Assembly (NCBI GenBank): GCA_965238275.1
Contig: OZ250186.1
Location: 2,112,001-2,176,000 of the forward strand
DNA length: 64,000 nucleotides
Direction: 5' to 3'
Origin: Nitrosopumilus sp.
Lineage (GTDB): Archaea; Thermoproteota; Nitrososphaeria; Nitrososphaerales; Nitrosopumilaceae
Part shown: one piece after another, positions 27,390 to 46,780 of the stretch
Layout of the letters: every line of letters starts with the position of its first letter
Position numbering within the stretch: position 1 is the stretch's first letter
Position numbers and translations under genes: made by a program
Notes under the pieces: generated by a model
Databases searched by the model: none
What the model saw: the letters and a program-made list of their open reading frames with translations, nothing else
Told to the model about the DNA's origin: nothing

Positions 27390-28835
27390 CTATAGCGGCG
27401 AGCGAAAGTTCGTGCAAACAGATCTCTCTGTAGCATGTCCTGATGCTCTTTCCGGCGCTCTGTCAGACCTTCCAATATTGTCGTCGTTGCCGGATCCAAG
27501 CCGACCTGTCGAATTGTTCATTCCAGAACCATCCGATCCGTGATCCTCGCGCCTTGTGACGACCTCGACACCTGCAATGGTGCCTCCACGATTCCCGTGG
27601 GCTTGGCCGCCAGTCTCCTCCGTATGGAGACAGTCATTATCCAAAATGTTTTTTGCCGCGTTCTTGTCGGCATGGTGGCACCATCCGCATGAGACGCAGA
27701 CAAATGATTCGCCGTTCCTGGATTTCTTGTCCACTACCCCGCAGGCAGCGCACCTCTGGCTTGTATGTGCGGATTCCACGCGTCTTGAAATTCCGCCTTT
27801 CTTTTTCATCTGCCATTCAAGCTGGATCCTGAACTCGCCCATTCTGGAATAGGCCATCTCGCGGTTCAACCCCGTCTTTGAAGCCGCCCCGCAGGATCGC
27901 CTCATCTTGGTCAAATCCAGGTCTTCCAGGAACAATACGGACAGTCCTTTTGTTATCCGCCTGGCAATGTCGGCCTCGTTGTGTTTTTGCCTGTTTGATA
28001 TCTTTTTCAATTCATGCGTTACCTTGCGGCCGATCTCTTTCCATCTTCTGGAGCCTGCCTGGCATCTTGATCTAAGTGATTTCAGCTGATCAATCCTGTC
28101 GCCGTCATGCCTCTTGCAGCCTCCGGGGACATTGTGCAGTTTTTCGTTCCCATGCTCGTCTGCGACTGCCGCAAGGTGCCTGACTCCAAGATCCAGCCCT
28201 GCCTTGCATCCGCCGCCGCCACCGCCTGTCGCGGGTTCGGGGTCTGGGACTTCTATCTGCAAATGCAGTTTGAATTCGCGATCACCATCCTTGGTCTTAC
28301 GCGTGACCTTGCCCGTGGTGTCAATCATCTGGAATGACACGAGCCTGCCTTCTGGAACCTTCGTGCGTGGCCTTGCTTCCCCGAGTCCGGGCAGAAACAC
28401 GGCTCCACTGTCTCGCAGTTTTGGCTTTGCGCGTGAATTCAGCGAGCGCAGCCTGGTTGTTTTCCTGCCGCGCCTCATCAGGCTGGACGGCTCGGTCCAC
28501 CGATTGTGCCTGTACGTCTTCTTTTTCCCCAGCTTGATCTGCTTCTTGCGCCAGATGCGCTTGTTGTGCTTGAGCCGGTTTGCCTTGCGGAATTTGACTG
28601 CCGCCTGGAAAGCCTGTTTTGAGGCGGCCTCGTGCATGCGGACGCTGCTGGCCAGGTTGAATTCCCTGCGCCATCCTGTTATCAGGTTGTTGATGTCAAA
28701 CTGTGTGATCCCCGGGTGTGCAAGTTTCATCATGATTGTCATGTCGTAAACGATGTCTGTTTCCCGGGAGCATTTCACGATCTTGCGTGACAGTTCCCGG
28801 GATTGTGTTATCTTGATGATTTTGCTGACAATCAT
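27390..28835 (-). CDS. tnpB: TnpB RNA-guided nuclease
   Basis: RuvC-I GLDLG, RuvC-II FLEDL, Zn finger CAACG..CVSCG, RuvC-III HADKNAAKNI. Confidence 0.92.
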   Translation of the reverse strand: MIVSKIIKITQSRELSRKIVKCSRETDIVYDMTIMMKLAHPGITQFDINNLITGWRREFNLASSVRMHEAASKQAFQAAVKFRKANRLKHNKRIWRKKQIKLGKKKTYRHNRWTEPSSLMRRGRKTTRLRSLNSRAKPKLRDSGAVFLPGLGEARPRTKVPEGRLVSFQMIDTTGKVTRKTKDGDREFKLHLQIEVPDPEPATGGGGGGCKAGLDLGVRHLAAVADEHGNEKLHNVPGGCKRHDGDRIDQLKSLRSRCQAGSRRWKEIGRKVTHELKKISNRQKHNEADIARRITKGLSVLFLEDLDLTKMRRSCGAASKTGLNREMAYSRMGEFRIQLEWQMKKKGGISRRVESAHTSQRCAACGVVDKKSRNGESFVCVSCGWCHHADKNAAKNILDNDCLHTEETGGQAHGNRGGTIAGVEVVTRREDHGSDGSGMNNSTGRLGSGNDDNIGRSDRAPERASGHATERSVCTNFRSPL

Positions 28836-28903
28836 ACCTGTAGTTGGGATTTATTTTCTTAAAAAGGATCTCAAAAAATTGCACGAACTTTCGCTTTTCA
28901 CTA
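27393..28903 (-). mobile_element. TIR-bounded TnpB-only element, copy 1 (1511 bp)
   Basis: 25-bp TIRs (21/25 match), TA duplication at 27391-92 and 28904-05; excision restores the host frame SDSSEIPSW. Confidence 0.92.
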
Positions 28904-30213
28904 TAGAATCGGAAGCGTCATCGGACTCGGTGGGGGGAAGGTCTATGACGCCCTCTGTTATCAGGAACTGGATTGCCTCTATGAAGGTGGCGTCATCTAT
29001 TACATCGCCTGCCCACAGTCCTGCATTGCGCTTTACCCAGGACGGGATGCTTACGGGTTCGTCGCTCACGGGTTCGTCGCCTGGAAATATCGTTATTGGA
29101 ACGAGCAGATAATCAGCGGGTCCCTCTGGAACAATATTTTCCTTAGCTTGGCCGTATATCCACACTGCATAGTCGACAGTGCCAGCATCCTCATCTACAG
29201 TCATTTCAAGAGAGTATTGGCCCGAGGTCGTATAGAGAACTCGCACACCTTCATCCTGTGCAAGTGATCTTATTGGCACACCAGAGTCATCCAGCACCAG
29301 AACATCAAACTGAACCTGGTTCAGGAACTCCGTGTCGTCCTCCTTTTTGATAAACTTGATAAGCCACTCCATCTCGCAGCCCTCGGCGGGATCCTCTGGC
29401 CCGTAGGAGACGTGTACCTGGTAGTGGTGGTGTTCGGTTGCCTTTTTGACCACGACTGTTCTTTGAACATCATCATCGCACCACGGCGGCAACAGATCAC
29501 TCCCCGTGGGGACTATGCCCGCAAACGGATTCTCCTGTACATACTGTTCATAGTCACGAAGTTCAAATTCATACTCTGTCGGAGGAATGCCTTCAGACAC
29601 ATGGACAAGTGTTGCAGCCTTAATCGGGAATGGGAAATCATCCACCACCCACACGTTGCTGACATATCCGCCCGTCTTCCAGGATATCCGAACAGTCTTC
29701 CATGTTCCTGCCGGAACAGTGACATCCTCGATCTCTTTTGGACGTATCTGCTCGCCGCCGATGTTTGCAATCTTGCCCCAGGATATATCAGTGAATGCCT
29801 TTGGGCCCTTCTGGCTCTCATCGATATTTGCAGTTGCATATGCAGACAGCCATGACACAGATGAGCCGAATGCACGCCTGTATTTATCCAGTTCAGGACT
29901 GCTGCCTGTCGGCTCAGGGATGAGTTTTCCCAGAGTCATATTTCCCACAATCACCTTGTTGCCGTCACGCACCACAACCTCTGCAAGCAGCTGTGTCTCA
30001 CTGCCGACTGTAACATCCCCCTTTATCCACATCTCAAAACTAAAATCCCTGCACTCCCTGTAGTCAAAATGACACATGGTATAATGAAAATAGTCGCCCT
30101 GCGCTAGTCCCTAGCCGACATACCATTCCCCCTCCTTGTCTACGCCGCCTGACTCGTACTGGGCAAATGCATCAGAAGAGTACGTCGCCAATAAAAGTAC
30201 CGTAATAGACAAG

Positions 30214-31895
30214 AGATCCTATGCAGAATGTGCCTGACGTGGCAAATCATAAAATCATGTCAGAACTGCGCTAGCCGTGGCCATATTTGAAAATCTCGTC
30301 TGCCGTATATTTTACAAATTTGTCTTGCACGTCCATGTGAAAAATCCAGTTTCCAGTATTGGATAATAAGGCACGTCCTGTGGATGTGCGGCATCCGTCC
30401 CCGGGGCGGCAGGTTGTTTCATGGGGAATGGTGGGGGAATTTGCACAAATATTGGATGCCGTGCGCGACATTCCTGCACTGCCTGATGCCACCTGCCTTT
30501 CACTCCGTCAGGCGGCTCGTGCCGCCCTGTCTCAGAGGCGCGCCCTTTTTTCGGCCAGCCTTTTGAGAAGGTCCGCGTCCCTGAGTTTTATTTCGTCCCA
30601 CATCAGATCCTGGTTTACCATTCCCGCAATCGCGTTGAGCTCGTCGTTGTACTCCTCCTCGGTGCCGTCGTACGGGTCAGTCAGCCTCTTGTACTGTTTC
30701 AGGCTTCCGATAACGTGCTCTATGGCCACACGGGAGCTGTTTACCCTCTTGTTGTAGGCGCGCTGCTTCTTTGTCAGGCCGCCGGTCTTTTTGTCGGCTC
30801 CACGCTTTTTCTTGTGCGGGTGCCTGATGTGCCATCCGGGATATTCCTCTCTTGTCCCTTGGTAGCCCTTGTCCATCAGGACGTCAGGCTTTTCCTTTTC
30901 GGGCACGTCCTTCTGGCCCATCCTTGCCGTAATGATTCCAAGGTTTGGCGGATCCTCGTTGAGCAGGGTCTTGTCGTGGACGCTGCCCGGAACGGTCTTG
31001 CTTATCGCCACTATCACGCGGCGCTTGTTGATCACGATGTTGGTATTGTACGTGTGCGCCTTCTTCTTGCCAGAGTACGTCTTTTTGCGCCTCTCCTTGT
31101 CCGCGGACCTTCTGACCCGGTTGTGCGTGCCGTCCACCATCAGTTCTCCTCCCCTCCTGCCGGGTATTATCTTCTTGCTCTCCTCGAGTGTCTTGGCCTT
31201 TTGTACAGCCTCGCTGATTTTGCGCGGCGCCGTGCCTGTCTCGCCTAGCAGCCTGGTCATCAACGGGAGATACCTGGAGACGGTGGCCTGGTCGACGCCA
31301 AACATCGCGGCAAGGGCTTCCTGCGGTATGCTCAGCCTTGTCCGAAGCAGCCACGGCAGGTACGCGTGCCTCAGGGGCAGGATGCGCCTGCTCCCGGAGT
31401 TTTTCGATCTGTTCTCGATTTCCCGGAAGAGCGCAGTCTCCCCGTTCCGCTCCAAAAGCTCCTCGAGGCGGTTCAGCGTGTGGCCAAACTTTTCCGGGGT
31501 GCGCAGCGTCATGGCGTGCAGGAATTCCGGATATTTTATGATGTCGTCGAGAACCCTCGACGTGACGGTCCAGTGATCAGTCAGGCGTTCCTTGAGCGCC
31601 TCGCACTTCTGTCGGTCTGTCCTGCGTGCTTCCCTGAGGGCCCTGATCCTCTGCCGGCAGGATTCATCCGACTCCCTGAGCGCCTCGTTTTCCTGCCGTA
31701 ATCTCTGCACCGTTGGATCGACTAGCATTGCCATCACGGTGTGGCGTAAAAATCACCGATCTTAACGTTTCGGTTATCCTTCTTGGATTGGCATGCTTTA
31801 CGATTCTGTGGATATTCGGCCGCATGTGGTGCCGCACGTGGGAATAACCCAATTTAATTCAGTTTTTTAAATCAGGCACATTCTGCATGAGATCT
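30214..31895 (-). mobile_element. IS5/ISL2-like element (1682 bp)
   Basis: 24-bp TIR AGATC(CT/TC)ATGCAGAATGTGCCTGA; 3-bp TSD AAG. Confidence 0.9.
30532..31737 (-). CDS. IS5-family (DDE_Tnp_4-like) transposase
   Basis: FGVDQATVSR HTH, VDGT, YSGKKK, GSVHD, DKGYQG, RVAIEHVIG. Confidence 0.9.
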   Translation of the reverse strand: MMAMLVDPTVQRLRQENEALRESDESCRQRIRALREARRTDRQKCEALKERLTDHWTVTSRVLDDIIKYPEFLHAMTLRTPEKFGHTLNRLEELLERNGETALFREIENRSKNSGSRRILPLRHAYLPWLLRTRLSIPQEALAAMFGVDQATVSRYLPLMTRLLGETGTAPRKISEAVQKAKTLEESKKIIPGRRGGELMVDGTHNRVRRSADKERRKKTYSGKKKAHTYNTNIVINKRRVIVAISKTVPGSVHDKTLLNEDPPNLGIITARMGQKDVPEKEKPDVLMDKGYQGTREEYPGWHIRHPHKKKRGADKKTGGLTKKQRAYNKRVNSSRVAIEHVIGSLKQYKRLTDPYDGTEEEYNDELNAIAGMVNQDLMWDEIKLRDADLLKRLAEKRARL

Positions 31896-31979
31896 AAGGC
31901 TACAATTAGCACATTCAATATGTAAAATAGTAAACACGGATAATTAAAAGTTAGTTTAAAGGGTTGGGTGCCTGCAGAA

Positions 31980-34259
31980 GTAAGCGTTCACGTCCCCCCT
32001 AGATACTGCGCCCACCCCATGCCAGTCATCCCCATGCACAGGCGTCAAACAACACAAACCAATGAATGAGTTTTTTCCAAATCTGTGCTTAAAATGACAA
32101 CGCATGAGTCAGTAAACAACGAATCCACATGAAACATGCGCGTCAATATCCATACACGAAATCAATATTTAAAAAAACCGATCCGGCATCCGCGGGATGC
32201 CCCGGGCAGGTGTCCCTTTAGGCATGGCTCCTTCTCCTCCTCCAAAATCCGAAAAGCTGATCCTGCAGGCGGAGCTGCGCCGCGCATGGGGCGTGGCCGA
32301 CTGCCTGATCGGAGTGGTTGCGACGTGTTTGGGACTGGTGGATTCGCTGAGGGGCAGGCTGGCACAAAAAACCAGGGAGAATGACGACTTGAAAAAAGAG
32401 ATAGTCAAGCTCAAAAGGATGCTGTCGGTCCACGAGAGTTGGAACCACTCGTCCAGGGAGGCAGTCCTGTTTGCCAAGAAGCGAAAAGAGTTCCAGAGGA
32501 GGGCCGGCGCCGGGACCGGCGGGGACGGTGGTGAGGAAGACGGTCAATATCCATCCAGAGGAGGGCCGGCGCCGGGACCGGCAGTGCCAGTCCTGACGGA
32601 AAACGGTGCGGACACCAGCCCGGGACAGAGGGCGTCTCCCACGGCCACAAGCCGACTGAAACCAAGACATATCGGGCAGACATGTGCAAAAACTGCAGCA
32701 GCACGGACACGCAGCCCGAAGGGATGTATTGGAAGATTGTACTTGATTTGACCCGATGTGATGGCAACAACAACATGGTCTGCCATGTGGAGGAGACCGT
32801 GCCGGCATACTGCACCAGGTGCGGCACCGTCACGCACCCCGAGACTGGCACCATTGCGGGATCATCACTTGGGCCCGGCCTGAGGAGAATAATCGCCAAC
32901 ATACACGAAGTCGTGCCATCCGTAAGGTCCATCCAAAGGCTCCTGGCATCAAACCACGGCGTCACGTTATCGACGGGGTGCATATCCAACTGCCTGTCGG
33001 GGGTGACCAAACGCGCAAAAGGGAACTGTCCGGAAACGACTCCCGGCCATGCAGAAACCCCGTTGGTCTCCAAGGGGCCGTTGTCGCTGCTGCCGCCGTC
33101 GCCTGCAGACTGCGGGCCGTATGACCCGAGCCGGGATGCCGTCTGGTCCGGCATGGCAACACAGCCGCTTGTCAGACAGATAGAGGAAAAGATCAGCATG
33201 GCCCCATGCGTGCAGATAGACGAGTCGCGAAAAAACATCGGGGGCAGGCAGGCACAGGCCCTGGTGCTGGACACAGAGCATGCTGTCCTCATACGCATAG
33301 AGAAGGACAAGTCCAGGAAGACCATGGAGGGTGCCTTTTGGATGGCGCTGAACAGGCCGTTTGTGGCAGACATGTACCGCGGCGGCTGCGCCTTTGCAGG
33401 AGAGTTCCAGTCGTGCTTTGTGCACGTGAACCGCAAGAGCGAGGGCCTGGCCATTCGCCACGGCATCGACTCGTTCGAGTACGTCCTGTACGTCATGATG
33501 CGCGGCATATACCATGACGCCAAGGCAGCAGCTGCCAGGACCCTCGAGATGGCCGGGGGGCAAGCAGTGCAGTCTGCCTGCGACATCGGCGCCGCCGTCA
33601 GGACAGTTCCAGGACTGGCAGAACACGTCGAATCAAGCCGGTCTGACCTGCTCAAGCGCCTCGGAAAGGTGGCCCACGCATACCGGAACGGCGCAGTCTC
33701 TGATGATGCCAGCCGCGAGTTTGCAGGCACGCTTGAAAACGCAATGCCGTACCTCCTCACGTTCATCGGACATCCGGGAATGGAGGGCAGCACCAACGCC
33801 TGTGAGAGAACCATACGCGGGTATGTCGTGAGGCCGCGCAACATACAGCGCATACTTCCGAACCGGCGCGCCGCAGACAACCTTGCCACGCTCCAGACGA
33901 TTCACGCCACGTGCGCAAAACGCGGAATATTCTCAGGCGATGCAGTCACCGCGTGCGACTCGTGGAACATGTTCGAGGCCGGGACGCCGCCGCCGATACT
34001 TCCGAATCTCAAATGACCGCGCCACGGCATCCGGCAGATCAGGGTTGTTGCCGCACCATTTTGGTTTAGACAGGACACGTTGCAGAACATGCCACAAAAA
34101 GCCGCAGGCATGTCTGCATGATGACATCTTATTCTTGCTATGCATTTTCACACACTGGCATATCTCTGATGGATGCTTCCATAATGGAGTCAGAATCACA
34201 TACCCATGTATGACATCCCAGCTAGCGTGGAATTGGCAAGGGGGGACGTGAACGCTTAC
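31980..34259 (+). mobile_element. IS66-family element (2280 bp)
   Basis: Perfect 21-bp TIR GTAAGCGTTCACGTCCCCCCT; 9-bp TSD CCTGCAGAA. Confidence 0.92.
32224..34016 (+). pseudogene. IS66 transposase, frameshifted in the N-terminal region
   Basis: Coiled coil, CxxC/CxxC, QIDES, QSCFVHVNR, STNACERTIR; 29-bp repeat at 32492/32554 (period 62) coincides with the frame change. Confidence 0.8.
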
Positions 34260-34394
34260 CCTGCAGAATGCCCCAATGCGTAAGCGGCTGGGTTTACGCC
34301 TAATTCCACAATGTTGCAGACATCAAGCCCAAACAGTTTGCCTCCAATGCCTCAAATAGGCAAATATAGAGGAAGAACGGCACAGATCTCAGAT

Positions 34395-34562: not shown

Positions 34563-34586
34563 AAAATAAAAGGAATGTAAGTTTTT

Positions 34587-34721: not shown

Positions 34722-34752
34722 ACTATACCTCACATGCACTTGTTTTAAAAGG

Positions 34753-36198
34753 TTATAGCGGCGAGCGAAAATTCGTGCAAACAGATCTCTCTGTAGCATG
34801 TCCTGATGCTCTTTCCGGCGCTCTGTCAGACCTTCCAATATTGTCGTCGTTGTCGGATCCAAGCCGACCTGTCGAATTGTTCATTCCAGAACCATCCGAT
34901 CCGTGATCCTCGCGCCTTGTGACGACCTCGACACCTGCAATGGTGCCTCCACGATTCCCGTGGGCTTGGCCGCCAGTCTCCTCCGTATGGAGACAGTCAT
35001 TATCCAAAATGTTTTTTGCCGCGTTCTTGTCGGCATGGTGGCACCATCCGCATGAGACGCAGACAAATGATTCGCCGTTCCTGGACTTTTTGTCCACTAC
35101 CCCGCAGGCAGCGCACCTCTGGCTTGTATGTGCGTGTTCCACGCGTCTTGAAATTCCGCCTTTCTTTTTCATCTGCCATTCAAGCTGGATCCTGAACTCG
35201 CCCATTCTGGAATAGGCCATCTCGCGGTTCAACCCCGTCTTTGAAGCAGCCCCGTTGGATCGCCTCATCTTGGTCAAATCCAGATCTTCCAGGAACAATA
35301 CGGACAGTCCTTTTGTTATCCGTCTGGCAATGTCGGCCTCGTTGTGTTTTTGCCTGTTTGATGTCTTTTTCAATTCATGTGCTATCTTGCGCCCGATCTC
35401 TTTCCATCTTCTGGAGCCTGCCTGGCATCTTGATCTAAGTGATTTCAGCTGATCAATCCTGTCGCCGTCATGCCTCTTGCAGCCTCCGGGGACATTGTGC
35501 AGTTTTTCGTTCCCATGCTCGTCTGCGACTGCCGCAAGGTGCCTGACTCCAAGATCTAGCCCTGCCTTGCATCCGCCGCCACCGCCTGTCGCGGGTTCGG
35601 GGTCTGGGACTTCTATCTGCAAATGCAGTTTGAATTCGCGATCACCATCCTTGGTCTTGCGCGTGGCCTTGCCTGTGATATCGATCATCTGGAATGACAC
35701 GAACCTGCCTTCCGGGATCTTTACGCGCGGCCTTACTTCCCCGAATCCGGGCAGAAATACGGCTCCACTGTCTCGCAGTTTTGGCTTTGCGCGTGAATTC
35801 AGCGAGCGCAGCCTGGTTGTTTTCCTGCCGCGCCTCATCAGGCCAGACGGCTCGGTCCACCGATTGTGCTTGTACGTTTTCTTTTTCCCCACCAGCTTGA
35901 TCTGTTTCTTGCGCCAGATGCGCTTGTTGTGCTTGAGCCGGTTTGCCTTGCGGAATTTGACTGCCGCCTGGAAAGCCTGTTTTGAGGCGGCCTCATGCAT
36001 GCGGACGCTGTTGGTCAGGTTGAATTCCCTGCGCCATCCTGTTATCAGGTTGTTGACATCAAACTGCGTGATCCGTGAGTGTGCAAGTTTCATCATGATT
36101 GTCATGTCGTAAATGATGTCTGTTTCCCGGGAGCATTTCACGATCTTGCGTGACAGTTCCCGAGATTGTGTTATCTTGATGATTTTACTGACAATCAT
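34753..36198 (-). CDS. tnpB: TnpB RNA-guided nuclease
   Basis: Near-identical to copy 1; D/E/D catalytic residues intact. Confidence 0.92.
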   Translation of the reverse strand: MIVSKIIKITQSRELSRKIVKCSRETDIIYDMTIMMKLAHSRITQFDVNNLITGWRREFNLTNSVRMHEAASKQAFQAAVKFRKANRLKHNKRIWRKKQIKLVGKKKTYKHNRWTEPSGLMRRGRKTTRLRSLNSRAKPKLRDSGAVFLPGFGEVRPRVKIPEGRFVSFQMIDITGKATRKTKDGDREFKLHLQIEVPDPEPATGGGGGCKAGLDLGVRHLAAVADEHGNEKLHNVPGGCKRHDGDRIDQLKSLRSRCQAGSRRWKEIGRKIAHELKKTSNRQKHNEADIARRITKGLSVLFLEDLDLTKMRRSNGAASKTGLNREMAYSRMGEFRIQLEWQMKKKGGISRRVEHAHTSQRCAACGVVDKKSRNGESFVCVSCGWCHHADKNAAKNILDNDCLHTEETGGQAHGNRGGTIAGVEVVTRREDHGSDGSGMNNSTGRLGSDNDDNIGRSDRAPERASGHATERSVCTNFRSPL

Positions 36199-36252
36199 AC
36201 CTGTGGTTGGGATTTATTTTCTTAAAAAGGATCTCAAAAAATTGCACGAACT

Positions 36253-37863
36253 CCCATGTGTTACGGGCATCCAAACCCGTTGATGTTGTGTGTTGACAAT
36301 GCGTCTGGTCCAGTCCGGTTTGGGTTGGTCGGGCAGTTTTTTAAAGATTTGTGGATCAATTGGGTAATTTTAGGCATGTCCGTGTCCGAACCGGCAGGCA
36401 CTGCGTGCGTATCCAGAAGAATGGTGCACAGCTGCCGCTAGGAATCCCCTCCCCCGTATCCGGAGGAAATGGTAGGCCAAACTCCTACAGTCAATATCAT
36501 TTTCGGCAAGCCGGGGGGACGGAAGGGGGCGTTGAGTCGCCCTCCGCTTGTGCAGGGGCGGCGAAACGCACCCCGGGTTCTCCAGTTTCCCCCAGGACGC
36601 CTAGACCTTGGATTCGGCAATGCGTTTTATTCTCTGGAATTTTCGTCTTACAAGATCCCTGTCCTGGGTCCTGTACTCGGTGCTGTGCTCAAGCATCTCC
36701 CAGACCCATTCGAGCATCTGCCTGGCCACGGCGACCCTTGCCTTCATGGGTCCTATGCGGGTTGCCAGTCTTTGGTAGCGCGCCCCTATCCGGACATCGT
36801 GCTGGACGGCAACTAACGCGGCCTCGACCATGGCGCGGCGCAGCCAGACGGAGCCGCGTTTTGTGATGCCGCCGGTCCTGACGGTCTCCCCGCTGTTGTG
36901 GTGTTTTGGCACCAGGCCGGCGTATGAGGCCATCTTTTCGGCGTCAGCAAACCTGCTGTGGTCGACTATTTCGGCAAGTATGGTTACTGCCGTAATGTAG
37001 CCTATTCCGGGTATGGTCATGATCAGCTGTGCCCTCCTGTCGCTCATTGCAATCCCGGCTACCTTTTTTTCAAATTTTGCCACCTGCTTTAGTACGGTAT
37101 CGATGGTGGCCAGATGCGACTGCACCGCCATGCGGTCAACCTCCCTCAGGGGCACGGCCTGCAGCCACTCGAGTCCAGGTCCCGTAAAGTCCTCCCTTGG
37201 GCTGCTCGTGCGGGTATTTGGCCAGGATCGCGTGGATGCGGTTCTTTGGGGCGGTGGCGTACATCTTCATGCCCAGGCGGGTGCGGGTCAGTTCGCGCAG
37301 GTCCCGCGCGGGCTTGTCGGCCACGAACGACTCCGGGATCATGTCCAGCCTGCACAGGTCTGCCAGCTTTGCCGAGTCTGCCTTGTCGTTTTTGTAGACG
37401 GTTTCGGTTATGATCTTCGTGTTGTGTGGGTGGGCCAGCAGGGTGTTGATGCCGACATCCTCGAGCATGTCGTGCACGACTATCCAGTAGTTGGCCGTGG
37501 ATTCGCAGACGGCCGTAGCCGGCACGTATCCTTCCTTGCGGATCATCTTGACGAATTCGGTTATTCCCCGGACATTATTGTCAAATTCAGCCTGCCTTAG
37601 TATCTTGTTGGTTTTGCCCTTGATGGTTGAAACGCATTTCTTTTTGTGAACGTCTATTCCAATGTAATACGTGCTATCACCTCCTTTGCAGCATATCGGA
37701 CCCGACCAGCGGAAAACTCCCATTCACCGTCAAAGCGGTATTTGACCATCCGCATACCTTGAGTCACTCTTTCGCACGCCATCATAAGTGGCAAGTTCGT
37801 GTCGACTCTCAGGTCCAACAGGGTAAATGCCATGATCACCGTTACAACGGCAACACATGGCGT
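36253..37863 (-). mobile_element. IS110/IS1111-type element
   Basis: CT core on both sides (36251-52, 37864-65); sub-terminal IR CCATGTGTT/AACACATGG; long 3' non-coding region. Confidence 0.88.
36601..37672 (-). pseudogene. IS110 DEDD recombinase, frameshifted, with ACG at the expected start
   Basis: YIGIDVHK, CESTANYW, KNDKADS, IPGIG, YAGLVP...SG; frame change near 37185; GGAGGTGA precedes ACG. Confidence 0.85.
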
Positions 37864-37973
37864 CTTTCGCTTTTCACTATAGTACAGGAACATGGTTTAT
37901 ACAAATAGGATCAACTCCCCCCATACATGGCAGTCGACTGTGATTTCCTGTGCGGTGTCCGGGCAGAACCGGG

Positions 37974-39786: not shown

Positions 39787-40349
39787 GCCTCAAACGGCTC
39801 CTCTGGCGTGGCGGACTTGTTTTCATAAAAATTCATCCTGTTAATCTTGTAGTATATGACCTCGCCGCGGCGCTCAATGACTGCAATTATCGGCTCCTTT
39901 CCCATCTGCGTAATCTCGTCAATCTTTTTTTGCAGGGCGCCCATCCTCTCCTGCCGGCCTTCGCTGAGGCCAAATATGAGAAACTTGGCACCCTTTTGTC
40001 CATAGTCCCCCCTCTCATAAACCCTAAAATCAGAACCGAACCCAAAGCCGTCCTTTACCACATAGCCGCGATTGCGAAGGTCGCGATATATCAGGAATCT
40101 TGTCAGTATCTCAGGATCGGTCTTTTGGCATGTGCTGACAAAGGAGTCAAAGTCAGTCTGCCGTCCTCCCTTGGTCAGGGTAAGGCGGTTGGTGTACAGC
40201 AGGTAGAGCGTTTCAAACTGCTTTAAGACAAGTCTCTTTCCTTCGGCGTCTCCAAACCCCTTCTGTTCAAGCTCGTGGATCATCTCCCGGTCGGATATGT
40301 ATACGCGTGAGGAGATCAGCTTACCGGTAACCAGCGGGGTCTCATCCAT
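39783..40349 (-). CDS. endA: tRNA-intron lyase (splicing endonuclease) subunit
   Basis: FETLYL, IYRDLRNRGYVVKDGFGFGSDFRVY. Confidence 0.85.
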   Translation of the reverse strand: MDETPLVTGKLISSRVYISDREMIHELEQKGFGDAEGKRLVLKQFETLYLLYTNRLTLTKGGRQTDFDSFVSTCQKTDPEILTRFLIYRDLRNRGYVVKDGFGFGSDFRVYERGDYGQKGAKFLIFGLSEGRQERMGALQKKIDEITQMGKEPIIAVIERRGEVIYYKINRMNFYENKSATPEEPFEA

Positions 40350-40448
40350 GATATGATGGGTGCCTGATGGTTTCCATATAAGCATTGGAATGGCGGCGGT
40401 TTGGGGGACCGGTCGGTTCAGGGGGAGGCGTTATAGGGTTCGTATCCG

Positions 40449-40492
40449 GGCAGGCAGGCAGGCAGGCAGCAGCAGCAGCAGCAGCAGCAGCA
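40449..40492. repeat. (GGCA)n-(GCA)n microsatellite
   Basis: GGCAGGCAGGCAGGCAGGCAGCAGCAGCAGCAGCAGCAGCAGCA, intergenic. Confidence 0.85.
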
Positions 40493-40567
40493 CCCCACAA
40501 ATGCGCGGCAGGCGTTGAAGGGATTGGAACCGGCACGGGCCGGTCCGGCGGTTTGGTCACATGCGCA

Positions 40568-42209
40568 GTAAACACTCAGGTCCCCCCAATCCACCTTGTT
40601 AATTCAGACTGCGACTGTCATTGCAGGTACTTCGCATGGAGGAGGCTTGAATATTTTCCAGCCAGGATCCCTGATGAGCGATTCCACTGCGATGCGTGGC
40701 AGTATTCCCTGCTTGTGGCAGGTGCGCGCAACTGAAACAAGTACAGAAAAGACCTTCATTCCCTCCGCCACTGACAGCTTGTGGCGCACGTTCCTCTGTA
40801 GCACGACGGCGTCGCGTATGTCCCGTTCTGCATCGTTATTGTGTGGAGGCATGCCGGGGTACTGCAGATACGTAAACAGGTCGGGGGCCGCACCCTCAAG
40901 GGTGGTCTTGAAGGGGTGGGATTCCCCGTAGGAGGCGGCAATTCCAAGCACGCGTTTTTCCAGGTCCCGACGCTTCGCGGCATCAGCCGTGTCCAGATCC
41001 TTAATGTCATGATACATTTTGAGCAGCCTTTCGTACTGGAGCAGATCATTGCCGCCGTTCCTGATTGCCAGCTTTTCAGCCTCGCGGAGCAGGTGTACCC
41101 AGCACCGCTGTTTGATTGGAAACACGCTGTATCCGGCATACCCGTCCACCACGACAGGAATGCCCAAAAGCCCGGCAAAGTGAAGTTCCAGTACGGCAGC
41201 GGCCCTGGTGTGGGCCACCACCACGTATGTTGCGTCTTTTATGGTGACAAGCCACGCATAGCCCCTCTTGCCGTTGATCTTGATGTATGATTCGTCCATC
41301 TGGATGTAGGGCGCGTCTGCCATCCTGTCCATGATCTCCTTGTATGCGCCCTCCAGGAGGCGCTTTAGCGCCACGCGCGCATTCCATATGGTGTTGGACG
41401 AGATCTCAAACTTGTATAATGCGTTGAAATAGTATGCGACGGTCTGGTCCGTGCTTCTCTTGTTGTAGTATTCCAGCACGAATCCCAGCGCCTTGGGGCC
41501 CAGTGACGTGCCGCACAGCGTGGGATCCGGGGCGGCAGTTATTGTGCCGCATTTGCAGCATGCTGCCTTTTCCATCACGTATGCGATACATTTGATCCCA
41601 ATCGCGTCGTCGTCGGGAAAGTCATAGACCATCTTCACTTTTGGAGCCGTATGCTGGAGCGTCTTGCTTCCGCAGCTGCCGCACCTGCTTACGCCCAGGG
41701 TAATCGTTCTGCCTGCCTTGTTCTTGTGCGAAACTCCGACATGGCCCATGGGCGGTCCGCGGCCGGTATTGTTGTTTTTTGATTCTGCATCGCCTGCTTC
41801 CGGTTTTGTGCCATCTTCTTCGGGTTCTGCATCACCCCCTTTTGGTTCTGCATCCTTTTCACGCTCCTTCCGGAAGGCATCGCGCTCTGCATTGTACATG
41901 GAAATGGTGGATGATGACATGTGCTCGCTTTCGTATGCTGCAAGCTTTCTGTCACGTTCTGCCAGATCAGATCTCAATGAATCTATTTCACGTACAAGCC
42001 TGATTGTCTCCTTGGCCAACGTGTCCTCCATCTCTTTTACCTTGGTTCTGAACATTTCATTCTCTCCGGCCAGTTTTCTGAATTCCTCGCGCAGGAGCGT
42101 AAGATCGGATTTACTCATGTGGTGGTTTTTAGACGCTACGATCTAAATTGTGATGGTCTAAATGGATGCATGTTCTGGTCAATGTTTAGGCAGGGACCTG
42201 AGTGTTTAC
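40568..42209 (-). mobile_element. IS66-family element, single-ORF type (1642 bp)
   Basis: 17-bp TIR GTAAACACTCAGGTCCC; 8-bp TSD CATGCGCA. Confidence 0.93.
40604..42118 (-). CDS. IS66 transposase, intact ORF
   Basis: Coiled coil, Zn finger, QMDES, VDGYAGY, QRCWVHLLRE, HNNDAERDIR. Confidence 0.92.
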   Translation of the reverse strand: MSKSDLTLLREEFRKLAGENEMFRTKVKEMEDTLAKETIRLVREIDSLRSDLAERDRKLAAYESEHMSSSTISMYNAERDAFRKEREKDAEPKGGDAEPEEDGTKPEAGDAESKNNNTGRGPPMGHVGVSHKNKAGRTITLGVSRCGSCGSKTLQHTAPKVKMVYDFPDDDAIGIKCIAYVMEKAACCKCGTITAAPDPTLCGTSLGPKALGFVLEYYNKRSTDQTVAYYFNALYKFEISSNTIWNARVALKRLLEGAYKEIMDRMADAPYIQMDESYIKINGKRGYAWLVTIKDATYVVVAHTRAAAVLELHFAGLLGIPVVVDGYAGYSVFPIKQRCWVHLLREAEKLAIRNGGNDLLQYERLLKMYHDIKDLDTADAAKRRDLEKRVLGIAASYGESHPFKTTLEGAAPDLFTYLQYPGMPPHNNDAERDIRDAVVLQRNVRHKLSVAEGMKVFSVLVSVARTCHKQGILPRIAVESLIRDPGWKIFKPPPCEVPAMTVAV

Positions 42210-42259
42210 CATGCGCATTGTGAACCGTTAAAATATGGGCGTCACGGCTTGAGGGCATC

Positions 42260-42774
42260 ATGCATGGTGCCAACTACAGGAACGGAACAGGCCAGCCATT
42301 TACGCGAAAGCAGTACATCAAGGGAAAACCGCAGATAAAGATCGCCAAGTTTCAGGGCGGCAAGAGGGGAACATACCAGTACTGCGTCCAGCTTCTCATT
42401 AATGAAAAGATTCAGATCAGGCACATGGCCATCGAGTCGACCAGACTTGCGGCAAACAAGACCCTGGAGAAGACAGTCGGGGAGACTGGCTACTATTCCA
42501 GACTCAGGATATACCCGCACAATCTCCTCAGGGAGAACAAGATGATTGCCGCCGCAGGCGCAGACAGGCTTCAGGAGGGAATGAGGCGTGCATGGGGCAA
42601 GGCAACAAGCCTCGGGGCAAGGGTCAGACAGGGCCAGTGCATCATAGACCCCGACATTATGTCAACGGGAGTGAACACCTGGAGGCTTCGAAAAAGGCAC
42701 TCAGGGGATCGTGCGTAAAGCTGCCCGGAACCCCGACAATCAAGGTAATCGAGTGGAACAAGCCATCACCATAG
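42260..42774 (+). CDS. rpl10e: 50S ribosomal protein L10e/uL16, apparent frameshift near 42645-42660
   Basis: RIYPHNLLRENK, GADRLQEGMRRAWGK; the C-terminus (EASKKALRGSCVKLPG) is in another frame. Confidence 0.88.
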
Positions 42775-43029
42775 GCCCTCCAGCTGCTGCTTTTTGCCCC
42801 TTACAAACGCCAAGAATTCCTCAAACTCTTCTTTTGTCGGTTCGCGCCCAAGCACCCTCCTTGACTGATAGTAGAATGCGTTATAGAGCCTCCCCATCGC
42901 TATCCCCAGTACAAACGACCGGGAATAGTCTGCCTCAGAAAGGGATCTGGCCAGCTGCAGTATCTCATCCCTGTTTGAGACAGTCTCCTGAATCTTCTGT
43001 TCCAGCCGCTCAAGGATCACCCCATTCAC
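42766..43029 (-). CDS. Hypothetical protein
   Basis: 87-aa ORF, YNAFYYQSRRVLGREPT. Confidence 0.7.
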   Translation of the reverse strand: MNGVILERLEQKIQETVSNRDEILQLARSLSEADYSRSFVLGIAMGRLYNAFYYQSRRVLGREPTKEEFEEFLAFVRGKKQQLEGLW

Positions 43030-43092
43030 GACTAATGTTGGTCTTTACTGTTAAAAACAGTTTAATATTCAAATCCGGATTCTAGAACTGTC

Positions 43093-43166
43093 GCAGTTAT
43101 AGTATAGTTTGGTTATTATGCGAGCTTGCCAAGTTCGTGACCCGGGTTCAAATCCCGGTAACTGCA
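43093..43166 (+). tRNA. tRNA-Gly(GCC)
   Basis: Acceptor GCAGTTA/TAACTGC, loop TTGCCAA, TTCAAAT T-loop, followed by CCA. Confidence 0.93.
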
Positions 43167-43597
43167 CCATCGGGTTCCAGGGGCGTCAGGGCCTTCCTGA
43201 TTATTGCCAGGGCATCCTGTGCCCTTGCAGGATTGGGCAGCTGAATCATAAAGACGTTATCCCTGCCGTAGTGGGATCTTGGGGAGGATAGTGCAAGCAT
43301 CGTGGCATCTGCAAGGGACTCGAAGAATGCCAGATCGGTTTTTGCATTGACCATGAATCTTTCAACCATGCCGCCCTTTGAGAACTCTAGAACAACATCC
43401 ACAAAGACATGCCCCAGCCCGTCCTGCAGGATGTTCAGATTGGTGTCGATCGAGAGCGGCCTGCCTGCAATCTCAGACAGCAGATCGTCATACCGGCTCG
43501 CCTCAATAACAATGCACGGGACCCTCCTGCCGTCAAAGTCAAAGGTGGTGACTCCGTCATGCACCCGGCTGAGCAGTCTCTTTAATTCGTCAGGCAT
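43148..43597 (-). CDS. Hypothetical protein
   Basis: 149-aa ORF coupled to the antiporter. Confidence 0.7.
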   Translation of the reverse strand: MPDELKRLLSRVHDGVTTFDFDGRRVPCIVIEASRYDDLLSEIAGRPLSIDTNLNILQDGLGHVFVDVVLEFSKGGMVERFMVNAKTDLAFFESLADATMLALSSPRSHYGRDNVFMIQLPNPARAQDALAIIRKALTPLEPDGAVTGI

Positions 43598-44915
43598 CGT
43601 CGTCCTGCTCGTCCATTGAAAGTACCTTGTCTCCGGCCCGTACCATGTATGGTGTAAGAAACGAGGTGATTATCGCGATCATTCCCATCAGCGGAAAGAG
43701 AAAGGCGCTGACTGCGCCTATGTCCACGCCGGTCTTAATAATTACGATTGAGAATTCGCCTCTTGGCGCAGCCAGGGTAAATGCGGAGCGAAACACGCCT
43801 CCGCGCCGCTGGCGGAATATCAGGCTGGCAATCGTGTTTCCCCCAAACTTTGTACCGATGGCCACTGCAATCAGTGCGACGGCTATGAGCATATAGTCGC
43901 CAATATTGGTAATGTCCATCAGGGCGCCTATGGATATGAAAAATATTGCCACGAACATGTCCTTGATCGGGCTTGAGAGCAGCTTGGCCACTTCGGCCGA
44001 CTTTGATTCGGCCACAAGCACCCCTGCCAAAAACGCCCCGATTGCAACAGAGAGCCCCACGACGTTTGTCAGCAGGGCGTATCCAAAGCAGATTCCAAGA
44101 ATGGTAAGCAGTAGGATTTCACGATGCTCGGTTGCAGCAACCCTGTCGATCAGGGGCGTGATCAGGCGGGTGCCGACTGCAAACGTTCCAAAGATCAGTG
44201 CGGCGGCGACTGCCACAACAGTTGCAACCGACTCTGGAGATACGGTTCCAATCAGGGCAACGGACTGCAGCGAGCTGAGCAGTATTACGGCAATTACATC
44301 CTCCACAATCAGGATTCCCAGAACCCGGATGGACGACTTTTGTTGGATCTTCCCTGCATCCTCCAGAATCTTGACGATTACAGCAGTGCTGGAGATGGAC
44401 AGGGCCGCTGCAATAAACAGGGCGTCCATGAACTCCAGGCCAAGCGCAGTCGCCACGTAAAATATGGCCCCCAGCGACATGAGCAGCCCCATCGTGCCCA
44501 CGCCTATGGTGGCCCGGCCTATGCTTCGAATCTTTGCGTACGGGAACTCGATTCCAATGACAAACAGTAGCAGTATGACTCCGATATCGGCAAAGAGGTG
44601 CAGGGCAGAGATGTCAGCCAGCAGCCCCACCTCGCCGAAGATGCTGGGATCCCTCCCGTCAGGCAGAATCCATGACCAGAACGGCGAGAGAGGGCCTATC
44701 AGCATTCCCGCAAAGAGATATCCGATGATCAGCGGCTGCCGTATCTTAAAGAATGCAAGGGCGACTACGGCCCCAATAATCATGATAAAAGCCAGATCAG
44801 TGATAAAGTTGGTATGGTAAAATCCAGGAGTGACCTGGTCAATAATGGTGGTTACGGTACTGTTGAACGAGTCTTGGATTGTTGACGGATCCAGCTGGAG
44901 TAAGAAGTTCTGCAT
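43590..44915 (-). CDS. CPA2-family cation:proton antiporter
   Basis: LLFVIGIE, SISSTAV, GILIVED, GAFLAG, PRGEFS. Confidence 0.92.
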   Translation of the reverse strand: MQNFLLQLDPSTIQDSFNSTVTTIIDQVTPGFYHTNFITDLAFIMIIGAVVALAFFKIRQPLIIGYLFAGMLIGPLSPFWSWILPDGRDPSIFGEVGLLADISALHLFADIGVILLLFVIGIEFPYAKIRSIGRATIGVGTMGLLMSLGAIFYVATALGLEFMDALFIAAALSISSTAVIVKILEDAGKIQQKSSIRVLGILIVEDVIAVILLSSLQSVALIGTVSPESVATVVAVAAALIFGTFAVGTRLITPLIDRVAATEHREILLLTILGICFGYALLTNVVGLSVAIGAFLAGVLVAESKSAEVAKLLSSPIKDMFVAIFFISIGALMDITNIGDYMLIAVALIAVAIGTKFGGNTIASLIFRQRRGGVFRSAFTLAAPRGEFSIVIIKTGVDIGAVSAFLFPLMGMIAIITSFLTPYMVRAGDKVLSMDEQDDDA

Positions 44916-45230
44916 ACTAACAGTTTGTACAGTATGCTTAAAAATAGATGCCATGGCAGATGGCACCCATACCCCGGAACTGACGCGGATCCGGCATCAC
45001 ATAGCCTGCAGGCCAAACCGCACCATGCCGTAGGACGTATTGGACTCACGGATTCGTGCGATCCGGAGATACGGCGCATGCCAAATCCCTTTATTGTCAT
45101 GGAACCGCACACACACATAGAGACAGTCACATGACCAAGTGCGGGGTGATGAGTAGGTCGACTGAAACGGGATGTGGAGACATGACCTGGGGTATTTGAC
45201 TGCATTAGGTTATGCCGTGTTTGGGTTCTG

Positions 45231-46720
45231 TAGTGAAAAGCGAAAGTTCGTGCAATTTTTTGGATCCCTTTTTAAGAAAACAAATTCTATCCACATACAT
45301 GATTGTCAGCAAACGCGTTACGATAATGCAGTCTCGGGAATTGTCACGCAAGATTGTAAAATGTTCCCTGGAAACAGACGTCGTTTACGACATGACCATA
45401 CTGATGAAACTGGCCCATCCCAAAATGACCCAGTTTGACGTGAACAACCTGATAACTGGCTGGCGCAAAGAATTCAACCTGACCAACAGCGTCCGCATGC
45501 ATGAGGCCGCGTCCAAGCAGGCCCTCCAGTCGGTAATCAAATTTAAGAAATCAAATGTGAAAAAACACGCAAAACGGATCTGGCGCAAGAAGCAGATAAA
45601 GCTCGGCAAGGCCAGAACGTACAGGCACAACAGGTGGACGGATCCGTCCAGCCTGATGAGGCGCGGCAAGAAGACAACCAGGCTGCGTTCGCTGAATTCG
45701 CGCGGAAAGCCAAAACTGCGAGACGACGGCACGGTGTTCCTGCCCGGACTCGGAGGGGTAAGGCCGCGCACGGAGATCCCCGAAGGCAGGTTTGTGTCGT
45801 TCCAGATGATCGACATTACAAACAAGGTCACGCGCAAGACCAATGACGGTGATCGCAGGTTCAAACTGCATTTGCAGGTAGAAGTTCCAGACCCCGAACC
45901 AGCTGCAGGCTGCAAGGCAGGGATCGATCTGGGCGTCAGGCACCTTGCGGCAGTCGCAGACGAGGACGGGAACGAAAAACTGTACAATGTTCCTGGCGGG
46001 TGCAGGCGTCACGACGGCGACAAGATTGACCGGTTGAAGTCACGCCGGTCAAAATGCGTGCGCGGTTCGCGCAAATGGGGAAAGGTCGGCCGCATGATAC
46101 AACGTGAATTGAAAAAGATATCCGACAGGCAGAAACACAACGAAACGGGCATTGCCAGGCGGATAACAAAAGGCCTGTCTGCGGTATTTTTGGAAGACAT
46201 GGATTTGACCAGGATGAGGAGATCCAACGGAAAGGCACCAAAGACCGGGTTGAACCGCGAGATGGCATACTCTAGGATGGGGGAGTTTCGGAGCCAGGTT
46301 GAATGGCAGATGAAAAAGAAAGGCGGAGTTTCAAAACGCGTGGAATACAAGAATACCAGCCAGAGGTGTGCTGTTTGCGGAACTGTGGACAAAAAGTCCA
46401 GAAACGGCGAATCCTTTGCCTGCACTGCATGCGGGTGGTACCACCACGCCGACAAGAACGCGGCAAAAAATATTTTGGATAATGACTGCCTCCACATGGG
46501 GGCTGGCGGCCAAGCCCACAAAAACAGTGGAGGCACCATTGCAGGTGTCAAGGTCGTCACAAGGCGCGAGGATCACGGTTCAGGCAGTCCTGCAAGGGAC
46601 AGCTTGACAAGTCGGCTTGGACCCGACAACGATGATTTTGGAAGATCTGACAGAGCGCCGGAAAGGGCATCAGGGCATGCTACGGAGAAATCTGTTTGCA
46701 CAAACTTTCGCTCGCCGCTA
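45231..46720 (+). mobile_element. TIR-bounded TnpB-only element, copy 3 (1490 bp, diverged)
   Basis: TAGTGAAAAGCGAAAGTTCGTGCAA ... TTGCACAAACTTTCGCTCGCCGCTA; TG duplication at 45229-30 and 46721-22. Confidence 0.9.
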
Positions 46721-46780
46721 TGGTACCAGTCACACTGCAGAGCCAGAACCCAGACGGCCCGCATAAGGAACCGCCAATAG
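45299..46780 (+). CDS. tnpB: TnpB RNA-guided nuclease (reads through the right end into the flank)
   Basis: GIDLG, FLEDM, CAVCG..CTACG, HADKNAAKNI; TTTTTAAG box about 25 bp upstream. Confidence 0.92.
   Translation: MIVSKRVTIMQSRELSRKIVKCSLETDVVYDMTILMKLAHPKMTQFDVNNLITGWRKEFNLTNSVRMHEAASKQALQSVIKFKKSNVKKHAKRIWRKKQIKLGKARTYRHNRWTDPSSLMRRGKKTTRLRSLNSRGKPKLRDDGTVFLPGLGGVRPRTEIPEGRFVSFQMIDITNKVTRKTNDGDRRFKLHLQVEVPDPEPAAGCKAGIDLGVRHLAAVADEDGNEKLYNVPGGCRRHDGDKIDRLKSRRSKCVRGSRKWGKVGRMIQRELKKISDRQKHNETGIARRITKGLSAVFLEDMDLTRMRRSNGKAPKTGLNREMAYSRMGEFRSQVEWQMKKKGGVSKRVEYKNTSQRCAVCGTVDKKSRNGESFACTACGWYHHADKNAAKNILDNDCLHMGAGGQAHKNSGGTIAGVKVVTRREDHGSGSPARDSLTSRLGPDNDDFGRSDRAPERASGHATEKSVCTNFRSPLWYQSHCRARTQTARIRNRQ

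Follow-up and report, generated by a model that had tools for sequence, protein, structure and literature searches.

TnpB-only elements with IS630-like ends in a Nitrosopumilus genome and their probable mobilisation in trans

How an RNA-guided nuclease could aid a cut-and-paste DDE transposon is a question common to the DDE-linked TnpBs of prokaryotes and the Fanzors of eukaryotes. It is posed in compact form by a stretch of 64,000 nt (hereafter the window; positions 2,112,001-2,176,000 of contig OZ250186.1, assembly GCA_965238275.1) from Nitrosopumilus sp. (Nitrosopumilaceae), the genome of which is a single contig of 2.2 Mb and 99.9% complete. Within this window three elements, each carrying a tnpB gene, are bounded by terminal inverted repeats (TIRs) and by a repeated dinucleotide. 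We consider them, with a probability of about 0.8, to be non-autonomous elements of the IS630/Tc1-mariner type having TnpB and its omega-RNA as their only cargo, which would be moved in trans and would home by means of TnpB; for both the mobilisation and the homing it is the anatomy of the elements that argues.

The elements and their cargo

All three window copies are members of one family of TnpB-only elements of about 1.5 kb, of which the host genome holds around two dozen copies, including 22 two-ended elements. Copy 1 (27393-28903, 1511 bp, minus strand) sits in a host gene between TA dinucleotides at 27391-27392 and 28904-28905, copy 2 (34756-37879, minus strand) lies between TA at 34754-34755 and 37880-37881, and copy 3 (45231-46720, plus strand), which belongs to a divergent subfamily with 81% identity to copy 1, is flanked by TG at 45229-45230 and 46721-46722. 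The extents of these copies and their TA, TA and TG flanks agree with the earlier note. Its description of them as encoding only TnpB is accurate for copies 1 and 3, but not for copy 2, in which an additional 1.6 kb is accounted for by a nested IS110-family element (36251-37863, minus strand; with the DEDD and Transposase_20 domains of its frameshifted transposase split over two frames) that sits between bases 16 and 17 of the left TIR and so interrupts it. Likewise, in the host genome and in the sister genome G111, also a Nitrosopumilus sp., uninterrupted elements are about 1.5 kb long and the longer ones are carriers of later insertions. The sister genome contains 17 TnpB loci in two subfamilies (45-57% amino acid identity), whose TIRs are of the same kind and whose flanks are TA. 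A transposase of their own is absent from all 22 two-ended elements of the host genome and from all 17 loci of G111, and relatives of the element were found in none of the viral or metagenome collections searched.

The TnpB ORFs of copy 1 (27390-28835) and copy 2 (34753-36198), both on the minus strand, are each of 481 aa. In copy 1 a stop codon is absent within the element, and the frame is closed by a TAG composed of the flanking TA and the first base beyond it, while the ORF of copy 3 (45299-46780, plus strand), counted from the ATG homologous to that of copy 1, runs 58 nt past the right end into the flank. The ORFs match the Pfam families OrfB_IS605 (PF01385) and Cas12f1-like_TNB (PF07282), both above cut-off, and score 120 bits with the NCBIfam model NF040570 (cut-off 100). 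Residues D215, E304 and D390, together with C362/C365/C380/C383, are invariant or nearly so in 12 relatives, and the D/E/D and CxxC...CxxC motifs can be aligned to their RuvC and zinc-finger counterparts in TnpB-like chains of solved structure, in keeping with the intact catalytic triad and zinc finger proposed earlier. Judged by its RuvC triad, zinc finger and family HMMs, the cargo is a TnpB-type nuclease. The long open frame is kept in 16 of the 22 elements of the host genome, and solved Fanzor chains are no closer in sequence to its core of about 400 aa than is bacterial TnpB.

Target duplication, ends and the transposase supply

Paralogous empty sites, one of which corresponds to copy 1, read in all three cases (3/3) as left flank, 2 nt and right flank, aligned without gaps. 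Removal of copy 1 together with 2 bp yields a host ORF of 432 aa that runs through the second copy of a C-terminal repeat, as against 398 aa when the element alone is removed and 391 and 397 aa when 1 or 3 extra bases are taken out. The proposals that excision of copy 1 with one TA restores the host frame and that insertion duplicates 2 bp are thereby sustained. The flanking dinucleotide is TA at 38/39 left ends and 40/41 right ends (78/80 overall), the sole other pair being the TG...TG of copy 3, and a TA target with a 2-bp duplication is characteristic of IS630/Tc1-mariner insertions. The TG duplication itself is represented by one copy, the orthologous empty site of which is not alignable.

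The 25-bp TIRs, TAGTGAAAAGCGAAAGTTCGTGCAA and TAGCGGCGAGCGAAAGTTCGTGCAA, are identical at 21/25 positions, the figure first reported. In copy 1 the left-end repeat, on the 5' side of TnpB, lies at 28879-28903 (minus strand), preceded by C-TA in the orientation of TnpB, and the right-end repeat, which doubles as the 3' end of the predicted omega-RNA scaffold, lies at 27393-27417 (minus strand). A 16-nt core of the TIR occurs five times in the window, as against 0.05 occurrences expected. When compared with IS630 elements of the same genome, the TIRs agree at 19-21/25 positions with the ends of subfamily C and at 17/25 with subfamily A; the two ends of one IS630 agree with each other at 19/25, that is, no more closely than the TnpB element agrees with IS630. 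The window itself contains an intact IS630-family element (11844-12943, plus strand; transposase of 337 aa at 11921-12934) that is flanked by TA and has TIRs with homology to the TIRs of the TnpB element, and the match between the two right TIRs at 17/24 positions was reproduced (17/25 when 25 positions are taken). Among 3349 genomic 25-mers, TA-preceded and TA-starting, the commonest score was about 8/25, and 29, counted by score alone and not by coordinate, reached at least 17. TIRs of the IS630 sequence family thus delimit the elements in both the host genome and G111, and in G111, too, intact IS630 genes are accompanied by TIRs that match.

The search for an IS630 sharing these ends exactly, or linked to this TnpB, returned the similar ends just described, none in the host genome being identical and none linked. 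Because no composite element holding both an IS630 transposase and TnpB was found, the connection to a particular transposase goes by TIR likeness only. The earlier note had also pointed out that the TnpB and IS630 ORFs enter the TIR in the same frame. The shared frame is seen (...LCKDF* and ...VCTNFRSPL*), but it does not extend to the sister genome, where the TnpB ORF ends about 31 nt short of the element end, and the common read-through is probably a coincidence.

Which enzyme, then, would move the element? The host genome encodes two intact 337-aa IS630 transposases, that of the window and a second at genome positions 1873267-1874277, and contains an internal-deletion derivative of IS630. 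In the complete host genome there are 0 matches to Y1_Tnp (PF01797) and 0 to Resolvase (PF00239), for which the positive controls registered in 6/14 and 12/14 genomes, respectively. Since Y1 and serine TnpA are absent from this complete genome and intact IS630 transposases are present, mobilisation in trans by IS630 is the best reading; the non-autonomous shell envisaged by the earlier note gains support from the homologous ends, the 2-bp duplication, the lack of an own, Y1 or serine transposase and the intact IS630 genes. The points on which that note had staked its interpretation came out in its favour, in that the empty sites reveal the duplication, the boundaries end at the TIRs and a linked TnpA is absent.

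The same observations bear on two other origins. TnpB-only elements are common in the IS200/IS605 family (IS1341 group), which shares with our element, as does IS607, a TnpB with a 3'-overlapping omega-RNA and a guide taken from the flank, and the strict left-flank motif discussed below would suit a TnpA target or a TAM. On such an account a Y1 TnpA would have inserted the element as single-stranded DNA downstream of a motif like C-TA, and the likeness of the TIRs to IS630 would be incidental. Yet IS200/IS605 makes no duplication, in contrast to the 2 bp seen in every empty site, the ends are inverted repeats with 19-21/25 matches to IS630, Y1_Tnp is missing from the complete genome, and with the IS200_TnpB model, for which the cut-off is 425 bits, the protein reaches 61; we regard this origin as extremely improbable. 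That the element is IS607-like and owes its movement to a serine recombinase is very improbable. In that case the flanking TA would be the crossover dinucleotide common to circle and target, a 2-bp core which would mimic a 2-bp duplication from a staggered cut, and the IS607_TnpB model does rank second in NCBIfam. Its 89 bits, however, fall far under the cut-off of 350, the genome lacks Resolvase domains, the TG...TG copy is more readily explained by duplication at an off-target site than by a crossover with mismatches, and the ends are 25-bp repeats homologous to those of IS630, whereas IS607 is described in PMC13565253 as having neither TIRs nor target-site duplications (TSDs). Both families have subterminal hairpins or asymmetric ends, no duplication and a Y1 or serine TnpA; the TnpB element has TIRs and a 2-bp duplication in a genome without TnpA.

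The omega-RNA, the base before the TA and a possible homing cycle

The predicted omega-RNA scaffold of copy 1 (27393-27631, minus strand, about 240 nt) has 11 helices, overlaps the last 80 or so codons of TnpB and ends at the element boundary, within the right TIR, where GCUC pairs in helix 11 with an upstream GAGC. Such a structured RNA at the 3' end of the gene, terminating at the right boundary of the element, is characteristic of OMEGA systems. Of the 50 predicted pairs, 21 have compensatory changes. Paired cells amount to 98.4%, compared with 33-46% after sliding the partners, a control which is free of inflation by relatedness and can favour a structure derived from the same sequences. 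On shuffling, the observed values were reached by 0/500 on four of five measures and by 473/500 on the fifth ('further pair types'), a control that is inflated by relatedness because just two genomes supplied the sequences. The guide of copy 1 would correspond to the flank below 27391. Matches in RNA libraries are to contigs only, come from one study and are not a sign of transcription.

The base preceding the TA on the 5' side of TnpB (position -3) is C at 39/39 left ends as against 17/41 right ends (Fisher p = 1e-9), and in the genome as a whole only 17% of TA dinucleotides are preceded by C. Transposase-bearing copies of IS630, a small control of 19 ends, have C at 10/19 and lack a side bias. 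This C-TA bias is new here, and it suggests that the target-adjacent motif (TAM) would be C followed by the duplicated TA. The C at -3 could alternatively reflect an unrecognised asymmetric target preference.

Together these features outline a cycle. A DDE transposase of the IS630 family, supplied from another locus of the genome, with subfamily A (that of 11844-12943) and subfamily C as the candidates, would bind the ends and cut and paste the TnpB element. Transcription across the right end would produce an omega-RNA with the flank past the duplicated TA as its guide, and TnpB would then cut alleles reading C-TA-flank, as a site does when it is empty or after precise excision, but not an occupied site, where the sequence is A-TA-flank. 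Cut alleles would regain the element through recombinational repair templated by an occupied copy. On this scheme the right inverted repeat would have two roles, serving the transposase as a binding site and doubling as the 3' stem of the guide-RNA scaffold. The prediction is sharp: the TAM should be a C-TA overlapping the target duplication, such that a single base spares the occupied site.

The same shell, mobilised in the same way, might instead carry a TnpB and omega-RNA that do not home and are a passenger or have a role in regulation or defence, the C then arising from the transposition machinery or from needs of expression. TnpB relatives exapted as regulators are known. We find this unlikely given the intact catalytic residues, conserved over 45-100% identity, an RNA scaffold whose structure is strongly selected as far as the element boundary, sensible only with the flank as guide, and a C bias that is side-specific at TnpB elements and absent from transposase-bearing IS630 copies. 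In its favour, DDE excision already makes a break, and a 2026 review (PMC13565253) raises this point. That cut-and-paste excision leaves a double-strand break in any case calls the added value of TnpB into question. The homing reading, to which the covarying omega-RNA reaching into the right TIR and the side-specific C both lend weight, places that value in the retention of the element.

Relation to known systems

The elements belong to a kind catalogued in 2023. According to Altae-Tran et al. (2023, PNAS, PMC10691335), IS630-linked TnpBs form a large branch, 'DDE-6', with symmetric ends and a possible link to Fanzor, and solo TnpBs lie within the same ends as the transposase-bearing elements and are inferred there to move in trans. 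Since the general idea is already published, no new class is discovered here, and the novelty claimed at first for this kind of element was overrated. Like DDE-6, our element has TnpB within symmetric IS630-family ends, with the 3' end of TnpB no more than 250 bp from the element end. Unlike it, the published branch being described with two genes in cis, one for an IS630 DDE transposase and a separate one for an HTH protein, and as extending to giant viruses, neither gene lies within the ends in any copy (22 elements of the host genome and 17 loci of G111), and the hosts are archaea of the Nitrosopumilaceae. The element also resembles IS630-derived MITEs in being non-autonomous, with IS630-type TIRs, a TA duplication and the need for a transposase in trans. 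Such MITEs and deletion derivatives, for example RUP of pneumococcus, combine IS630-type TIRs and a TA duplication with transposase supplied in trans, and differ in being empty shells, whereas our element, at 1.5 kb, contains a gene that looks functional as well as a structured RNA.

Fanzor1 was reportedly found by Bao and Jurka in 2013 in eukaryotic Tc1/mariner transposons. Both cases have a TnpB-type nuclease in a TA-duplicating, TIR-bounded DDE transposon and, according to PMC13565253, a guide RNA running through the right TIR. The same review states for Fanzor that the 5' TSD belongs to the TAM and the 3' TSD lies inside the scaffold, and the C-TA bias of the TnpB element suggests the same arrangement. 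In contrast to Fanzor1 the element is prokaryotic, compact and intronless, its host being one of the Nitrosopumilaceae and not a eukaryote or eukaryotic virus; the resemblance is one of architecture, not of demonstrated descent.

A more tentative idea, possible though we lean against it, is that the thaumarchaeal clade arose independently of DDE-6, when a TA-duplicating DDE transposon captured TnpB. Nuclease and shell would then have become co-adapted through a C-TA TAM, an A-TA escape of the occupied site, and a right TIR whose outer half diverged from the left to form a stem of the omega-RNA and yet continued to serve the transposase. Were this so, the element would have converged naturally, in a prokaryote, on the solution seen in Fanzor1 and mariner, and the 39/39 bias would mean that TnpB-dependent retention, and not the choice of the transposase, decides which insertions survive. 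The family offers a compact natural test case, in which two complete genomes provide dozens of independent insertions, candidate transposases are encoded alongside the elements, and the guide-RNA scaffold is well defined.

Copies of the element and its target duplication

The window spans bases 2112001-2176000 of a genome that consists of one contig (2,216,668 bp, G+C 52.7%) and belongs to the Nitrosopumilaceae, its genus being shared with a MAG that carries the label Nitrosopumilus sp. The three TnpB elements described in the earlier note are real and their coordinates correct: copy 1 at 27393-28903 and copy 2 at 34756-37879, both on the minus strand with TA on either side, and copy 3 at 45231-46720 on the plus strand with TG on either side. 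The element ends in 25-bp terminal inverted repeats (TIRs), TAGTGAAAAGCGAAAGTTCGTGCAA at the left end (TnpB 5' side) and TAGCGGCGAGCGAAAGTTCGTGCAA at the right end (TnpB 3' side), which are identical at 21/25 positions. Collected genome-wide with copy 1 as BLAST query, as the earlier note had proposed, the family amounts to 22 two-ended elements plus fragments, at 80-100% identity, none of the elements carrying a transposase gene of its own. A motif search for the outer ends returned 22 left and 24 right ends, all in distinct flanks, and the left set was widened by two more divergent ends picked by coordinate. A long open frame round the nuclease domain is retained in 16 of the 22 two-ended elements. 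Mini-elements consisting only of omega-RNA were also sought, and the two right-end and two left-end fragments examined are plain truncations. In RNA libraries of a single study (four runs) the element appears in contigs, at 95-99% identity, which is no proof of transcription or of RNA ends; these contigs switch to unrelated sequence exactly at both ends (window 27389-27391 and 28906), as expected for a multi-copy element.

The 2-bp duplication is real. Three elements have a diverged paralogue of their insertion site elsewhere in the genome (five paralogous sequences), and for 3/3 of these elements the left flank, 2 nt and the right flank align gaplessly with the same-genome empty sites across the junction. 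These sites carry CA, AA or CT at the target position, so that the paralogues are not targets themselves. In the gene split by copy 1 (window 26900-30077, minus strand), removal of copy 1 alone yields a host ORF of 398 aa, removal of copy 1 plus 2 bp yields one of 432 aa that extends through the second copy of a C-terminal repeat, and taking out 1 or 3 extra bases instead yields 391 and 397 aa; the host frame is restored, as had been claimed, by removing copy 1 together with one TA. The product of this gene ends in two ~45-aa repeats, reading ...IPSWVKRNAGLWA.DVIDDATFIE.IQ..., and both repeats recur in a paralogue near genome 766100-766430. For copy 3 an orthologous empty site was sought in same-genus genomes. 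These have its neighbouring 70-nt element as well as the gene further downstream, but the stretch between the two has diverged too far for an alignment, and the TG duplication thus rests on one copy. This conserved ~70-nt element (window ~45137-45214), directly 5' of copy 3, has C/D-box-like motifs (GTGATGA ... CTGA) and is found in most same-genus genomes; ARAGORN detected no tRNA at it or beside copy 3.

IS630-type ends, transposases and relatives

Several IS630 subfamilies are present in the genome, every copy being flanked by TA. The copy at window 11844-12943 (subfamily A) encodes an intact 337-aa transposase (DDE_3 match; NCBIfam IS630 172 bits, cut-off 100), and a second intact gene, at genome 1873267-1874277 (subfamily C), is 63% identical to it. 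The proposal that the TnpB element has IS630-type ends is borne out by its TIRs, which share 19 and 21 of 25 positions with the subfamily C right TIR; the corresponding value for the right TIR of subfamily A is 17 of 25, and as a benchmark the two ends of one IS630 agree at 19 of 25. In a genomic background of 3349 25-mers beginning with TA directly after another TA, the commonest score is ~8 of 25, and only 29, not matched to coordinates, score at least 17. The TnpB ORF in this genome has no stop within the element; it ends in TA together with the first base of the flank, or continues, so the earlier observation that the TnpB and transposase ORFs cross the repeat in a shared frame holds for this genome. 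It is not conserved in the sister genome of the same genus, where the TnpB ORF stops ~31 nt short of the element end, before the TIR; a shared frame, having a chance of one in three, is probably a coincidence and was dropped as a sign of descent.

As regards other transposases, this genome, which is 99.9% complete, has no Y1_Tnp match and no Resolvase match, although of 14 genomes used as controls the Y1_Tnp search was positive in 6 and the Resolvase search in 12. Neither a Y1 nor a serine TnpA, of the sort that accompanies classic TnpB elements and that the earlier note had considered as another explanation of the ends, was found. Some eight loci of other TnpB families (for example genome 171837-172034, 577394-577591, 1130379-1130573 and 787096-787290) likewise occur in this genome devoid of any Y1 or serine TnpA, and one copy of the TnpB element described here has entered the 5' region of one of these other families. 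A composite of IS630 transposase and TnpB element was seen neither in this nor in the sister genome, and no relative appeared among 133 pattern matches of a metagenome contig scan or among 64 of a viral contig scan.

The TnpB clade is narrow, with 38 clusters in a large protein collection and identity dropping from 45% straight to ~30%. Of 200 further genomes sampled from the Nitrosopumilaceae, only the sister genome holds a close relative, with 17 loci in two subfamilies (45-57% amino acid identity), 15 of them with both ends, and all 32 of 32 ends are IS630-type repeats with TA flanks. The intact IS630 genes of that genome share 88, 82 and 65% identity with the gene in the window, and their TIRs are of the same family. 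Close IS630 relatives (at least 58% identity) occur in at least 4 of 201 genomes searched, the present one included, and both TnpB-bearing genomes are among the holders. The next-closest TnpBs (28-38% identity) reside in other Nitrosopumilaceae genera, in TnpB-only elements of 1.4-1.9 kb whose repeat is another one, GGGAATTATATAC..., and whose target duplications are 8 bp long; these constitute a putative second DDE-type shell with TnpB in this archaeal family.

The nuclease, its RNA and the flanking motif

The ORF of the element is TnpB. It matches Pfam OrfB_IS605 and Cas12f1-like_TNB and scores 120 bits with NCBIfam guided_TnpB (cut-off 100), while falling far under the cut-offs of the IS607-specific and IS200-specific NCBIfam TnpB models. 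D215, E304, D390 and four zinc-finger cysteines are kept in relatives down to 31% identity and line up with RuvC motifs in TnpB-like chains of solved structure.

A conserved structured RNA, overlapped by the ORF, takes up the element's final ~240 nt. For 19 aligned sequences (this genome 8, sister genome 11) RNAalifold predicts 50 pairs, 21 of which stay paired through changes on both sides, and 98.4% of cells are paired as against 33-46% with the 3' partners slid by 1-3 columns. Shuffles matched the observed values in 0/500 cases on four of five measures and in 473/500 on the fifth, 'further pair types', a control that overstates the case because the sequences come from only two genomes; the slid control is free of this weakness, and can favour a structure derived from the same sequences. 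In the final helix an upstream GAGC pairs with GCUC in the right-end repeat, with covariation (AU 12, GU 3, UG 3, CG 1). Both in place and in form this RNA is as expected for an omega-RNA scaffold and, since the scaffold stops where the element does, flanking DNA would serve as the guide.

Left ends, read in TnpB orientation, have C directly before the TA in 24/24 cases in this genome and 15/15 in the sister genome, as against 10/24 and 7/17 at right ends read outside-in (left vs right, Fisher p = 1e-9), and C precedes only 17% of all genomic TA. The C is also present in the paralogous empty sites and hence belongs to the target DNA, not to the element. Transposase-bearing IS630 copies have C at 5/10 left and 5/9 right ends. 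Most simply, TnpB would require C together with the duplicated TA as its target-adjacent motif (TAM). An empty site, C-TA-flank, would then be cuttable; an occupied site, ...GCTA-TA-flank, would present A-TA ahead of the guide match and be spared. Alternatively, the transposition complex may have an asymmetric preference that has gone unrecognised. At position -5, T is found in 19/24 ends in this genome but A in 10/15 in the sister genome. The C-TA arrangement proposed here is the same as that reported for Fanzors, whose TAM includes the 5' duplication and whose scaffold contains the 3' duplication (PMC13565253).

Proposed working, precedents and insertions into the repeats

The ends, the duplication and the absence of a TnpA support the earlier reading of a non-autonomous IS630-type shell that carries TnpB and is moved in trans. 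The anatomy, duplication, end homology, intact nuclease, structured RNA and absence of TnpA are observed. On the most likely reading of how the element works, an IS630 transposase would act in trans, read-through transcripts across the right-end repeat would supply each copy with its own guide, unoccupied or precisely vacated C-TA sites would be cut by TnpB, and an occupied copy would restore the element by recombination. A weak point is that the gain from TnpB is harder to see here than in IS605 or IS607, because DDE excision itself leaves a break, a point also raised in a 2026 review (PMC13565253).

Altae-Tran et al. 2023 (PMC10691335) described a TnpB branch with symmetric ends, DDE-6, that is associated with IS630 transposases and with a separate HTH protein, all six DDE-linked groups being bounded by inverted repeats, as well as solo TnpBs within near-identical ends, read as mobile in trans, and a possible Fanzor link; the 2026 review restates these findings (PMC13565253). 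The novelty claimed in the earlier note was thus overrated: since DDE-6 and solo TnpBs in the same ends had already been reported (PMC10691335), the element is a well-resolved further case of an already published kind. The 2023 main text is silent on target duplications, Thaumarchaeota and Nitroso- taxa (PMC10691335), and no paper turned up in a literature search that combined TnpB, Nitrosopumil* and sponge. What is added is the archaeal host lineage, direct evidence of the TA duplication, the double use of the right repeat and the C-TA prediction.

The extra length of copy 2 is due to a 1613-bp IS110-family element (36251-37863) inserted in its left-end repeat. Genome-wide, 8/8 of the 5' junctions of this IS110-family element follow base 16 of an IS630-type inverted repeat (after ...AAAG), three of the repeats hit being from TnpB elements and five from IS630-type ends, and 4/5 of the 3' junctions continue with the inner repeat half. 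The element appears to target IS630-type inverted repeats and in this respect resembles IS1111-group elements that target transposon end repeats. The TnpB element at genome 642579-645958 has its left repeat broken by a ~1.8-kb element with inverted repeats of its own and an 8-bp duplication, AAAGTTCG.
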